Part shown: positions 5,036 to 64,000 of the stretch, piece by piece
Position numbering within the stretch: the first letter of the stretch is position 1
Layout of the letters: the number at the start of each line of letters is the position of its first letter
From: Amoebidium appalachense
Taxonomy: Eukaryota; Protista; Ichthyosporea
Assembly: GCA_963693365.1 (NCBI GenBank)
Contig: CAVNZM010000005.1
Span: 10,563,728 to 10,627,727 of the forward strand
Reading direction: 5' to 3'
DNA length: 64,000 bases
Translations under genes and position numbers: made by a program
The notes under the pieces: generated by a model
What the model was told of the DNA's origin: nothing
The model's input: only the letters and a program-made list of their open reading frames with translations
The model's database searches: none

Positions 5036-8000
5036 ATGACGGAGATGCACGGCCTCGACGTGGATGATGGTGTGCAAATCATACTTTCCGATGAGGAAGA
5101 TGAGGCGAAAGAAGAAAACGATAACATGACGCTGGAAGAGGGAGGTAAGAGTGCTGGTTTGTAAAAACATGAACCTTTATGGGTACACTGACCGGAATGC
5201 TGTGCTGCAAAAGTACTTACGTTTTTCACGGAACGAAAGGGACGTTGTACGAAGAAGCCACAGACCTGTTAAAGAAAACGGCAACAAGAAACTGTGGGTG
5301 ATTGTATACATTAGCAGCGAATCCACCTCCCTGCAACAACATAGCCCCCCTCCCCCCCTTCCTCTCCCGTTTCACCGATCCCGCACATCTCTTCATCCTC
5401 TTCCGTCCCACGAGAAGATGAGGAAGATGGCACTTAGACAGGGTAAATATAGCGCGCAGAAACATAATAAGCACACACAACAAATCACAGATAATATTTT
5501 AAACATTGGGACTCGGTTCAATGTGGCTCAGCATAGTCTGGTGGCTTAATTAACCTACCACATCTGCTTATGCTTACCACCCATATTTGTGATCCTTTCC
5601 TTCTTCACCCGGCCTTTTCCCCATTTTTGAGCTTTGAGAACATAGAGAACGCAAAAAATCATTGAGCATGGTTCTTGAGCTATTTCCTATTTCTTGATGC
5701 CTGTTGTGAATAAAGAGAATGGTGTAGACGATGGGAGCTTTCTTGTTTAAGCCCATCTACTCCTTGTTCGTTTTGATAGGAAATGATTTCAAGCTACTCG
5801 ATTGTCTATTCGGAGACAGTCGACTCACATACACGTATCCCCTCCCCCCTTCTTCCCTCCCCCCCCCCCCTTTTCCCCCACCACCCTTCGTTTTCTCTGG
5901 CTTTCCCCTCAAACCCAACTCACCCCACTCCCCTTGCTGCTGTCATCTTTCACCCCTCCCACAACCCTACCAACCCCCCCCTCCCCCCCCCCCCCCCCAC
6001 CACCACCAAATAAAAAAACCTCTTCCCATCTTTCGCCTTTTATTTGTGGTACTCTTTTCTTTCAGAGGAGAAGAAGAATTTATCCATGGACACGTCATCA
6101 GTTGCATCACACGAGGAGGAGGAAGGGGAGTGCTTGTGGGCGTGTTCAGTGTGTGACGGCCAGCTTGATAGGCTATACGAGCACCCTTATCTTGCGGAGG
6201 TGGCGGTGTGCAAACCGTGCAAAGAAAAGGTTGAAAAGAAGGTGGGTGGGTGGTTTGACATCAGGTGTACCCGTTTTCGGTGGGCTATGCTGGTTTATGA
6301 ATATTGGGCGCGTGAGAGATGGAAGCAAGTGCATGTGCCCCCCCCCCCCCCCCCCCCCCCCCCCCCCCCCCCCCCCCCCCCCCCCCCCCCCCACACACAC
6401 ACACACACCCTCTTCCCCCACTTATTCGCTTCACGGGCTTCCAGAAGAGGAGCAATAAAAATTTCAAAGAAAAGTCGAGAAAATATCTGGAGGAAAAACA
6501 TGCACTCAGTAGTGCTCAGTAATGGTTCCTGTGCAAGTTCATATGTGTGCATGTGCATGTGCTTGAGTACGTGCCATGTTTGACTTCACTTCCGATCCTT
6601 ACATCGCTGATGGCATGTCCCCCCCCCCCCCCCCCCCCCCCCCCCCCAGTTCAAGTCCAGTGAGCAGGACAACGACCATTGCCATTGGTGTGGGAAACGT
6701 GGGGATCTGTTTTTGTGCGATGAGGAATCGTGCCCGTACGCATTCTGTGAGGACTGCATCAGTGGAAATCTCGGTGAGGAAATACTCTCAATCATCAAGG
6801 AGGCAGGTGGGTTATGCTCTGAAGACACACACACACACACACACAAAAAAAAAAAAAAAAAAGGGGGGGGGGGGGGGGGGGGGGGGGGGGGGGGTTGGGG
6901 GTTGAGAGCACAAGTGAACACCAAAGTGGGAATATGTGTGCACAGCCCCCCCCCCCCCCCCCCCCCCCCCCCCCCCCCCCCCCCCCCCCCTCCCCCCCCC
7001 CCCCCCCCCCCCCCCCCCAAAAAAAAAAAAAAAGAAAAAAAAAAGCACTCTACCTTTTTCCTGCCTTCTCACAACCCAAATCATCACCACGGTCGACCAC
7101 CTCCACCGAGCATACAAGTAAGCAATCAGACAACAACAGCAAGACAACCACAAGAACAGACCCTCTCCCCCGCCCCCGTCCCCCCTCCCCCCCATTTTTG
7201 AAGGGGGTTGGGGGGGGGGGGGGGGGGGGAGGGTTGTTCAAGGCTGGAGGAAGAATTCCGGATATAAGACTGCGGTTTTTAACACCGGCTTATTGCAGAT
7301 CCGTGGTATTGCCTCAAGTGCGATGGGGAGCCGCTTGCCGATGTGAGGCGGCAGTACAAGCACATGCGGGAGAATATGATGTACCTGCATGAGGTGGAAG
7401 ACGAATCAATGGAGGGGTTGACTATAAATAGCATCAGGGTGGAGGACAAGGAGGCACAAAAGGAGGTTTTGTTGATGCCCCCCCCCCCCCCCCCCCCCCC
7501 CTCCCCCCCAAAACCCCGCCCTTTCCCCCGTGTTATGTATACTTATGCTGGTTATTTCGGTGTTTTTTTTTTTTTTTTTTTTTTTTTTTTTCTTCCCCTC
7601 TCTGTAATATGATATACCTGCATGAGGCGGAAGATGAATCGATGGAGGGGTTGACTATAAATAGCATCAGGGTGGAGGACAAGGCGGCACAAAAGGAGGT
7701 GTTTCTTTTTTTTTTTTTTTTTTTTTTTTTTTTTTTTTTTTTTTTTGCCCCTTTCTGATTCCTCGTGTGAATCCCCCTCCCCTCCCCCCCCCCCCCCCCC
7801 CCCCCCTCCAGGTTGTGTGAATTTTTTTTTATATCTTTGTTGAAACATGAGGTGTATTGCATGGCAAGGAAGATGAATCGATGGAGGGGCTGAACTGTCA
7901 ATAGCAACAGTGAGGAGAACGGGGGGGGGGGGGGGGGGGGAGGGGGGGGGGCAAAAGCAGATCTGTTGTGTGGGTTGTTTGCATGTAAGGTATTTGTAGT

Positions 8001-61398: not shown

Positions 61399-64000
61399 TC
61401 ATTTTTCAGGCTCTCCAGGTTGAGATTCCGAAATTCCATCTCCCTTCTGACCTTCAGAATCGCTCAGTTCCTTTGAGAGCCTTTCGTACGATATTGGGAG
61501 TGGTCGTCCGGTCATCTTTGAAGCCAGCTGTAACGTTTTAACCTTTGTACGTAATGTATCGTGCATGTTTGGTTTCTCAAATGGCGGTGCGTCGTTGAAA
61601 GTGGGTGGGGTGTAGGGTTCGGGGCCGGGGGGACTCAGAGATCCGTTTGTGAGTTCGCACGCTTGTTCTATTGTTGCTTTTTCTCCGTGGTCGATCGGTG
61701 TCGTCTGTGTACGTGTACGTGTGTGTACGTGTGTCCGTGTGTGTTTGTGTGTGTGTGTACGTGCGTATGTACGTGTGTGTGTGTGTGTGTGTGTGTGTGT
61801 GTGTGTGTGTGTGTGTGTACGTGCGTATGTACGTGTGTGTGTGTGTGTGTGTGTGTGTGTGTGTGTGTGTGTGTGTGTGTGTGTGTGTGTGTGTGCGTGC
61901 GTGCGTGCGTATGTACGTGTGTGTGTGTGTGTGTGTGCCGTGTGCATGCATATGCACGAACAAGTGTATCATGTGCAAGGAATGGAGAGACGGAGGACGG
62001 GGGGGGGGGGGGGGGGGGGGGGGGGGAAGGGTTAGCCTGTGCATGTGCATGCCTTAGGAGGCAGTGGTGGTGCCGATGACGGCGGTGGTGGTTGTTATTT
62101 CTTATTTCTTTTTGTTTGTTTGTTTTTCTTTGGGGTGGGGAAGCACGCTAATGTGTCCATCAAATTTCAATTGTGTTCAAAGTGTACGTCTATGTTTGTG
62201 TCCGTTCTTGTATCTGTAAGGCTTCACGTGCGTATCCGTTTGTCGGTGTACATGTCTTGGGTGATGAGATAGCAGCAGATGTGCAAAACACCAATGGCTG
62301 TTTGAACGGTATTACGGAGTATAGGTGTGTGTGTGTGTGTGTGTGTGTGTGTGTGTGTGTGTGTGTGTGTGTGTGTGTGTGTGTGTGTGTGTGTGTGTGT
62401 GTATGCACGCACGCGCGCGCGTGTGTGTGTGTGTTTGTGTGTGTGCGTGTGCGTGTACTTCCTTCCTTGTGTGAGTGTGCGCGTGCGTGCGTGCATGTGT
62501 GAGTGTGTTTGTGTATGAAATGTGTGTGTGTGTGTGTGTGCGCGCGTGTTTGTGTGTGTGTGGAAGAGGGGGGGGGGGGGGGGAAGCACCTGTGAAGGGG
62601 TAATACAGTCCATATCGACTTCTTTGCGCAAAACCTTGTCGATGTCCACATTACTAAAAAAGGCAACACTCTGGCGGGTAGGTTGGGATCAGAATATGGA
62701 ACGTGTTAAAATTCCTTTAATATACTGAATATCCCCTCAGACACACAGGTTGTTATTATTTAACAGCTGACCCCCCCCCCCCCCCCCCCCCCCTCCCCAT
62801 CCCCTCCGCCTACGGCAAGGAATGCTGTGGTTAGTAGAATGTTGTTTGCAAACATAGGCAGGCTCTATTATGGGGCTTTTGTGTGTGTGTGTGTGTGTGT
62901 GTGTGTGTGTGTGTGTGTGTGTGTGTGTGTGTGTGTGTGTGTGTGTGTGTGTGCACGCGCACATATGTTTGTCCCGTCCGCCTGTCTGCCTGTGCACTTC
63001 GGAATGTGCGCGCGCGTGCACACACACACCCGTGTCTGTGTTTTTTGAAGGGGGGGAAAGGGGGGAAGGGGGGAAGGGGGGAGGGGAGGGGGGTACCTGT
63101 GGAAGACTGTAAAGCTTTACTTGGTGGCAGAAAAACGCCCGCACATAGAGGTTGGTGATGTGGAGGGCCAGGGCTGCACGGTAGCGATCCTCTGAGCGAA
63201 TCAGATAGCGCGCTTCATCGTGGATGCTGATGCAGAACCTGCCATGTGTGACAAGGTGCCAATGAAGCACATGGACAAATGTAGATAATAAGCGTTTAAG
63301 GAAGATCTTAGGCTTCAGGGCAGTTAGCTACCCTGATGCAAATATACTTTCCGACTAGAGAGCAGGTGAGGGAGACAATGATGCCAAAAACCGGCTTCAG
63401 AGCATTAAATTCTACTCAAATGTTCAACACTTGGTTTCCTTTAACGATCCCCCCCCCCCCCCCCCCCCTTCCCCCCCTTTCGCCCCAAAACATAAAAAAA
63501 AAAAAAACCCTGTAAAATGCGTGTGCGGAAACATTTCGTATTCAATAAGGGAATGTTCACGTTTTGACAAGCTTCCTGATGACGAGCCTAAGACAAAAAG
63601 AAAACAAAAGAAACAAAAGAAACAACAACAAGCATGCTTAGCACACAAAAAGAGAACAACTTGACATAACCTCATTAAACAAGCCAACCAACCCTTACAA
63701 CCCAAAAGCATTCCGACACATTCTAGAGCAACCGGCCACGTTAGCCCCAAAATTCGGTCCCGCCAGCGGCTCGCACGGATCCGGATGTTTGCGGGATCGA
63801 AATGACGCAATCAGTTAATTTTTTAGCCACCGCTGGCAGCAAAAAAATCATTTGATGAAGTCACACAGATTGCGCAAACATCTGTGTGGTCCGCTGGTGG
63901 GGCCGAAAGTTGGGGTTACGGCCTCGTACCTTCCGCGGATTCCATACTGGTGCATGAGGTACTTCATGGACACCAGCATCAGGTGCAAGTAGTCCACGGC
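61399..64000 (-). CDS. POLG: Mitochondrial DNA polymerase gamma catalytic subunit, 3' part (5' end lies beyond the window)
   Basis: Exons (minus) >64000-63930, 63238-63097, 62670-62590, 61704-61399 translate [15 protein letters not shown]...[31 protein letters not shown]...[29 protein letters not shown]...ELTNGSL: family-A motif C (HDE) plus POLG-specific C-terminal blocks. Confidence 0.95.

Follow-up and report, generated by a model that had tools for sequence, protein, structure and literature searches.

C-rich tracts just downstream of weak 5' splice sites in a 64 kb stretch of the Amoebidium appalachense genome

A stretch of 64,000 nucleotides (nt) from the ichthyosporean Amoebidium appalachense (contig CAVNZM010000005.1, positions 10,563,728 to 10,627,727; hereafter, the window) contains four intron-rich genes in which 30 of 50 introns (60%) open with a C-rich tract shortly after the 5' splice site, or donor. 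These tracts lie on the RNA strand in both gene orientations, accompany mostly weak donors in introns with ordinary U2-type ends, and are absent from orthologous introns of other organisms. We lean towards reading the tract as a donor-proximal intronic splicing enhancer that would be read on the RNA by a candidate poly(C)-binding KH protein and would stabilise U1 at weak donors; the protein and its effect on splicing are what we infer from this pattern, as is the order of events proposed below. All statistics derive from this single 64 kilobase (kb) window and its four genes, one of which, an ATRX-like gene, supplies 32 of the 50 introns. The genes were delineated from reading frames and Pfam matches, and contribute 32, 6, 9 and 3 introns, respectively:

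5036..38267, plus strand: ATRX-like gene; 33 exons, 32 introns; C tract at 22 donors
41401..46107, minus strand: SAM-domain gene; 6 introns, 4 confirmed by spliced contigs; C tract at 2 donors
49229..58209, plus strand: gene encoding ubiquitin-like and UBA domains (UBL-UBA); 9 introns; C tract at 4 donors
61402..64000, minus strand: DNA polymerase gamma gene, 3' part; 3 introns inside the window; C tract at 2 donors

The junctions of 46 introns were inferred from reading-frame continuity and homology, and those of the other four were observed in spliced contigs from public runs X1 and X2, which join four SAM-domain exon pairs at CT..AC ends, including those at donors 41754 and 42162; X1 and X2 come from one sample, to which three of the runs belong, and the RNA nature of this material is presumed. 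Donors comprise 49 GT and one GC, and acceptors 45 CAG and four TAG among the 49 examined (all introns but one), with no ends other than GT/GC-AG in the 50 donors and 49 acceptors. Branch-point-like motifs occur as CTRAY in 23/49 and as YTRAY in 33/49 introns, counts that carry no control for chance. These are ordinary U2-type spliceosomal introns. The internal exons have a median length of 114 nt (39 exons) and the introns one of 760 nt, and an architecture of short exons and long introns favours exon definition. On both counts the data do not support the first-pass annotation of this sequence, which had proposed a candidate non-canonical intron-definition code; that label overstates a pattern for which an enhancer is, in our analysis, the best reading.

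A tract was defined as at least 45% C at positions +11..+60 of the intron, a threshold that falls in a gap, with no intron lying between C fractions of 0.38 and 0.46. Windows elsewhere in the same introns are expected to reach this level in 11.8 cases, compared with the 30 observed at donors, and at the acceptor end 6/49 introns reach it. Runs of at least five C starting within 20 nt of the donor are present in 29/50 introns, compared with a mean of 6.0 and a maximum of 17 in 200,000 draws of a random position within the same intron; the corresponding count for G is 1. For runs of at least eight C starting within 30 nt, the count is 22/50 against a null value of 4.1, with none for G. C10 clusters reach 7.8 per kb within the first 60 nt, against 1.9 per kb mid-intron and 1.0 over the final 60 nt; G10 clusters stand at 0.7, 0.8 and 0.3 in these three zones. 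Tracts are found on the RNA strand of 26/41 plus-strand and 4/9 minus-strand introns, bearing out the earlier claim that their polarity follows transcription. The stronger claim of strand-locking holds near donors, where 23 C clusters face 2 G clusters, and weakens mid-intron, where the ratio is only about 2:1 and derives in part from a dispersed repeat with a poly-C tail.

The first run of five C begins at +4..+17 in 29/30 tracts, with a median start of +11. At +11..+50 the tracts are 77% C and 13% U, their interruptions are mostly T, and 7/30 hold no run longer than 8 nt, indicating that C-richness, rather than a pure homopolymer, is the signal. Simple tolerance of such runs is not the explanation, since C runs, though pyrimidine, are not enriched at acceptors. 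All 25 donors singled out by the first-pass annotation coincide with exon-intron boundaries in our models and carry a tract, and its four exceptions (13608, 20192, 37691 and 55467) are all donors without one; its census missed five further tract donors (15242, 18064, 31114, 34037 and 53726). The 30 tract donors are given below with run lengths as assembled, which may be inflated by homopolymer error (lower case, exon; upper case, intron; each interval covers the first 60 nt of the intron).

7466..7525, plus: gag/GTTTTG; C24 from 7478
8643..8702, plus: agg/GTCAGT; C21 from 8652
9535..9594, plus: cag/GTACCC; C18 from 9538
10479..10538, plus: gat/GTATGT; C21 from 10493
11487..11546, plus: gtg/GTATTC; C16/C23 from 11495
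15242..15301, plus: aag/GTGTGT, strong class; interrupted C tract
16185..16244, plus: gag/GTATAC; C19/C27 from 16190
18064..18123, plus: cag/GTATAT; interrupted C tract
19137..19196, plus: gag/GTAATC; C32 from 19159
20852..20911, plus: atg/GTAACG; C29 from 20868
21573..21632, plus: aag/GTGTGT, strong class; C16 from 21586
22501..22560, plus: acc/GTGAGT; C10/C15 from 22507
23623..23682, plus: agg/GTTCGT; C8 and CCCT repeats
25104..25163, plus: aag/GTACTC; interrupted C tract, then C42 from 25158
26203..26262, plus: att/GTTAGT; C19 from 26219
28072..28131, plus: ctg/GTGATG; C19 from 28083
28681..28740, plus: aag/GTTGCC; C20 from 28689
29169..29228, plus: atg/GTATCT; C19 from 29178
30060..30119, plus: tgt/GTAAGT; C7/C29
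31114..31173, plus: gag/GTTAGC; interrupted C tract
32325..32384, plus: gag/GCAAGC (GC donor); C22/C15 from 32330
34037..34096, plus: cag/GTCTGT; interrupted C tract
41695..41754, minus: aag/GTATTT; C27; junction in spliced contigs
42103..42162, minus: gag/GTAAAC; C15; junction in spliced contigs
52425..52484, plus: aat/GTATTC; C34 from 52435
53726..53785, plus: gag/GTATTC; interrupted C tract
54809..54868, plus: tag/GTATTG; C20 from 54833
57136..57195, plus: cag/GTAACT; C32 from 57146
62530..62589, minus: cag/GTGCTT; C16
63037..63096, minus: cag/GTACCC; interrupted C5-C7 repeats; position common to 44 distinct orthologous introns without a tract

The presence of a tract is linked to the weakness of the donor. 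Matches to the -3..+6 donor consensus correlate negatively with C content (Spearman rho -0.59, p 6e-6), an anticorrelation that the first-pass annotation had anticipated, and in-register U1 pairing energy, calculated with the canonical U1 5' end, correlates accordingly (rho 0.55, p 4e-5); the link persists under within-gene permutation (P 0.0006). Donors without G at +5 carry a tract in 19/21 cases, compared with 11/29 of those with +5G (p 3e-4). When donors are divided by a strong class defined after seeing the data (-1G, GT, +3 purine and +5G), the tract is present at 2/18 strong and 28/32 weak donors (p 1e-7), a split that is stable over tract thresholds of 0.35-0.6. It also holds after removal of UG-repeat donors and of tracts starting at or before +10 (0/9 strong versus 14/18 weak, p 1.5e-4), and after removal of nine gene-proximal introns (2/11 strong versus 28/30 weak). 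Among +5G donors only, in a test on 49 introns that did not yet include the 50th (a weak donor lacking a tract), 9/10 of those weak elsewhere have a tract, versus 2/18. The GC-AG intron at 32325 carries one of the purest tracts, with 90% C at +11..+60. The window thus shows two marks of a donor-proximal enhancer, enrichment in the first ~50 nt on the RNA strand and association with suboptimal donors, and the enhancer reading stands as the best one because anticorrelation with donor strength is the pattern expected of such an element.

No link was detected between the tract and intron length (p 0.11) or the pyrimidine content of the upstream acceptor (p 0.17). Exons preceding tract donors are slightly shorter than the others (118 nt against 132 nt, p 0.044 in one test among several), a difference given no weight. 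Decoy donors are somewhat rarer before mid-intron C runs (8/64 versus 23% of 300 random positions), a count that was left unused, as it is not composition-matched.

The polymerase gamma intron at 63096 was compared with its counterparts in other organisms. A GT occurs at the same position in 57/74 metagenome loci encoding the same exon, the remaining loci having no intron there or being unusable, and 44 distinct introns are left after duplicate removal. The tract is present in 0/44 of them (maximum C 0.38, mean 0.17), in a comparison where many of the sources look mutually close and where short-read metagenome assemblies may under-represent long runs. Judged by its position in these sequences the intron is old, and the tract was evidently added to a pre-existing intron in this lineage. 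An introner origin for the tract introns is rejected in the one of 30 that was tested, this same intron, whose position is shared with other organisms. By inspection, the segment from GT to tract has no sequence in common among introns, and the dispersed repeat described below lies at least 44 nt inside introns.

The 20 introns without a tract have UG-rich donor flanks, with a TG count per 54 nt of 6.4 there and of 3.4 in mid-intron sequence (p 3.5e-4), possibly reflecting a second enhancer class or the growth of GT repeats seeded by the donor. Neighbouring introns switch between the two classes. Donors close to the start codon stand apart, since a tract is found at 0/7 of those within 2 kb of it and at 28/40 of those further in (p 0.0008, with a cut-off chosen post hoc). 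Five of these seven donors fall in the strong class, perfect GTGAGT sites included:

5145, 6242, 6807, 44654, 45127, 46052, 49407: donors less than 2 kb from the start codon, no tract

The tract resembles several known elements. In yeast, the KH domain of Mer1 binds a CCC-containing enhancer no more than 25 nt from non-consensus donors and acts via Nam8/U1 (PMC3082912, PMC8624252). A KH-read, CCC-containing element near a non-consensus donor there rescues weak 5' splice sites, the likeness here lying in tract position, with a putative KH reader; furthermore, the yeast SPO22 donor, GUAUAU, is that of the window donor at 18064. Mer1, however, serves a few meiotic introns through an 8-nt motif, AYACCCUY, whereas tens of C-rich nt are found here at 60% of introns. 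The full motif AYACCCTY occurs in the first 40 nt of 0/50 introns, which rules out the Mer1 enhancer proper, and AYACCC in 4/30 tract introns.

In vertebrates, donor-flank enhancers can be G-rich or U-rich interchangeably and are partly of mutational-bias origin (PMC3606033, PMC6344860), and the G runs bound by mammalian hnRNP F/H share with the tracts a homopolymer-like make-up, a place in the donor flank from which they aid U1, and a lineage-specific gain from the mutational background. The base is nevertheless the opposite one, with G runs within 30 nt of 0/50 window donors, and the window tracts are longer, lie nearer to the donor and show a nearly binary link to its weakness. The activity of G runs is said to depend on splice-site strength, with a buffering effect (the claim in the title of Xiao et al. 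2009). The U-rich flanks associated with TIA-1, TIAL1 and Nam8 likewise place a pyrimidine tract that aids U1 next to the 5' splice site (PMC3606033, PMC3082912); TIA-1 binds U-rich RNA, in contrast with the C-dominated composition of the window tracts. Candidate readers include the poly(C)-binding KH proteins PCBP1/2 (alphaCP), of which PCBP1 has an inferred enhancing activity when located downstream of 5' splice sites in human; hnRNP K is a weaker candidate because it is reported as a repressor (PMC13751310). In the window, the donors that carry a tract appear to be constitutive, and tracts show no enrichment at acceptors. The C-rich elements of PCBP1/2, by contrast, reportedly concern chiefly C-rich acceptor tracts and certain groups of cassette exons.

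Our literature search found no data on PCBP or hnRNP K in ichthyosporeans, and no description of donor-proximal poly-C in this group; supplements and most subscription journals lay outside the search, so that a prior mention is possible. The tract would thus work like a known kind of element, and what appears to be new, in that we did not find it in print, is the choice of base, how common the tracts are and how sharply they go with weak donors, in a unicellular holozoan.

A sequence of events can be proposed in which slippage would generate C and G runs throughout the genome as raw material, and runs landing at about +4..+17 on the RNA strand would recruit an activator in a Mer1-like manner. 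With a tract in place, loss of +5G, +3R, -1G and even +2T would be tolerated, through which weak donor and tract would become coupled; strong donors, whose flanks tend to be UG-rich, would need no tract. We put forward more tentatively a two-class donor code in this lineage, in which most introns, including ancient ones shared among opisthokonts, would rely on poly-C read by a KH protein (or acting through polymerase pausing), and strong, UG-flanked donors would cluster at gene 5' ends. The tolerance of degenerate donors in intron-rich eukaryotes, and the place of enhancers as cause or consequence of donor decay, form an open question on which most work has been done in vertebrates and yeasts, where the effects are either diffuse or limited to a few genes. 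If the enhancer reading is correct, a poly-C mark on a majority of introns, nearly all-or-none in its link to donor weakness and in at least one case added to an intron of ancient position, would open the compensation model to direct testing and would provide a C-based counterpart to G- and U-based codes. A two-class code, if true, would amount to a genome-wide and nearly binary natural experiment in the decay of core splice signals under enhancers, near the origin of animals. In practice, the tract would be a strong feature for gene prediction in the lineage, and the window gives a warning on homopolymer errors in its assemblies.

Several observations weigh against an enhancer. Taken alone, -1G is not significant (25/43 versus 5/7, p 0.69), exon-side matches by themselves correlate only modestly with C content (rho -0.30, p 0.035), and the signal comes mostly from the intron positions, at which base composition can spill over into +3..+6. 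The sharpest contrast rests on a class defined post hoc, four weak donors have no tract, and the base is narrow, with only four genes, 32/50 introns from one of them and 46 inferred junctions. Weak donors, in the sense of lacking +5G, can work without a tract, since many of the orthologous polymerase gamma introns have neither. A tract follows only 17/235 intronic decoy G/GTR sites, which speaks for an enhancer, but this low count may only mean that GT-rich and C-rich patches segregate. Tract introns are also richer in C beyond +200 (0.36 versus 0.27), and mid-intron C clusters outnumber G clusters by 68 to 28, or by 50 to 27 away from the repeat element (p 0.012); both point to a strand-biased compositional process. 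Composition contributes to the donor-strength link, and the window cannot fully separate composition from function. In its extreme form, which we judge unlikely though deserving serious weight, this argument makes the tract an inert by-product, with transcription-strand-biased slippage or substitution rendering intron 5' ends C- or pyrimidine-rich, or UG-rich, and the same process eroding or creating +3R, +5G and +6T, so that strength and flank composition correlate. Such a by-product would fit the greater C-richness of tract introns throughout, the persistence of the mid-intron bias, the abundance of long runs in the window (276 C and 111 G runs of at least 6) and the UG-rich flanks of non-tract donors, where the consensus bases at +3, +5 and +6 would be supplied by GTGTGT repeats; moreover, mammalian G-rich donor flanks arose by isochore-scale mutation and were then partly selected (PMC3606033). 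It leaves unexplained, however, the +4..+17 start and the four-fold peak at donors with none at acceptors, as well as an association that persists without UG-repeat donors and early tracts. Furthermore, the +5 base of the 19 tract donors without +5G is not mostly C (10 T, 6 C and 3 A), weakness on the exon side correlates too, and adjacent introns switch class.

A DNA-level timing mark, in which a G run on the template strand (as a G-quadruplex or unusual duplex) would slow RNA polymerase II 10-40 nt past the donor and give U1 time, predicts the same strand, position and weak-donor link as an enhancer read on RNA, and the missing tracts near start codons hint at a need that depends on elongation or chromatin. 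We nonetheless consider it improbable: most of those start-proximal donors are strong anyway, the ~68 mid-intron C clusters would stall the polymerase to no purpose, and the 7/30 tracts that are short and interrupted, mostly by T, fit C/U-binding proteins equally well. Two further explanations are far more doubtful. Bridging of the RNA, by pairing of the 5' C tract with a G run near the acceptor to loop out the intron, is described for (AC)m-(GT)n introns in zebrafish and (GGG)-(CCC) introns in human, which, like those of the window, carry simple repeats at their 5' ends and lie in a genome rich in repeats (PMC4691745). Sense-strand G runs do occur in the window introns, which differ, however, in having no complementary G run at the 3' end: a run of at least eight G is found in 11/30 tract introns versus 12/19 non-tract introns, one of at least six G within the last 120 nt in 2/30 tract introns, and the tracts pair no better with their own 3' ends than with those of other introns (-9.2 versus -8.9 kcal/mol), so that bridging is largely refuted. 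The idea that the tracts were created by homopolymer over-calling in long reads has as little to recommend it. Short-read contigs are one base shorter than the assembly at three intronic places (including an A11 run, where X1 and X2 agree), and a T8 run causes a frameshift in the ATRX-like gene; allelic variation could be an alternative to over-calling for these differences. Over-calling makes runs longer but has no means of positioning them behind weak donors, on the transcribed strand, in genes of both orientations, and 7/30 tracts have no run longer than 8 nt.

The dispersed repeat is degenerate and about 120-170 nt long (64-82% identity by blastn); it ends in poly-C and often has poly-C before it as well. 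Its main copies are as follows:

9618-9788, 13223-13355, 15461-15566, 17336-17530, 30541-30651, plus strand: dispersed repeat
49950-50043, 51344-51453, 57179-57342, 57479-57582, plus strand: dispersed repeat
40149-40348, minus strand: dispersed repeat

Of 14 profile matches, 13 are intronic and 12 of those sense, comprising nine clear intronic copies that are all sense, three weak sense copies and one doubtful antisense copy. The repeat explains 18/68 mid-intron C clusters, never lies between a donor and its tract, and may be a non-autonomous element that has a poly-C tail or prefers C runs as targets. Long intronic tandem arrays (units of ~58 nt and 19 nt; CT and CCCT microsatellites) occupy 9160-9450, 29550-29860, 33306-33612 and 34050-35690. 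C runs are also found on the minus strand outside the modelled genes, at 39629-39800, 40408-40424 and 59445-59510, several with a donor-like GT 6-30 nt upstream, and these may mark unmodelled introns of untranslated regions or small genes. A scan of viral contigs for a donor followed by C14 returned 13 isolated single matches, all lacking gene context and uninformative.

The name of the gene at 5036-38267 is inferred from its predicted domain architecture, with Pfam matches to an ADD-like PHD domain (below the Pfam cut-off), SNF2 and helicase C; its helicase motif I (18020-18063) has diverged from the usual SNF2 form. Its chain is open in all 33 exons save for one surplus base in the T8 run at 25743-25750. 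As assembled, the frame holds 43 stops, whereas with this run one base shorter there are no internal stops over 1408 amino acids, and all 11 exons downstream fit the shortened run, which is probably a homopolymer assembly error. The UBL-UBA chain is open without any such change. EukProt Ihof_evm12s63, 87% identical to an exon of the SAM-domain gene, is the only relative found for that exon; this sequence is collinear with five exons of the gene and was taken as its orthologue. We take the prefix Ihof to stand for Ichthyophonus hoferi, and Ichthyophonus is reported to be intron-rich (PMC5560861). When the long SAM-domain exon was used to scan metagenomes, 0/337 candidate stretches proved to be relatives, a C-terminal exon of the ATRX-like gene gave no match as a search query, and an Rfam search of the window returned 0 matches. 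Polymerase gamma is an opisthokont marker.

The 3' half of ATRX-like exon 4 and its donor (7373-7470) are copied within the next intron (7606-7703; 94% over 98 nt), and a third, partial copy of the segment lies at 7858-7893. No acceptor precedes the 7606-7703 copy, and its donor is followed by a long poly-T run and no poly-C. Ahead of the ATRX-like gene, a long coding stretch on the minus strand (1-1279) appears on visual reading to have no introns and may include a zinc-finger-like segment; long G runs occupy the plus strand upstream of it, at 2564-3239.

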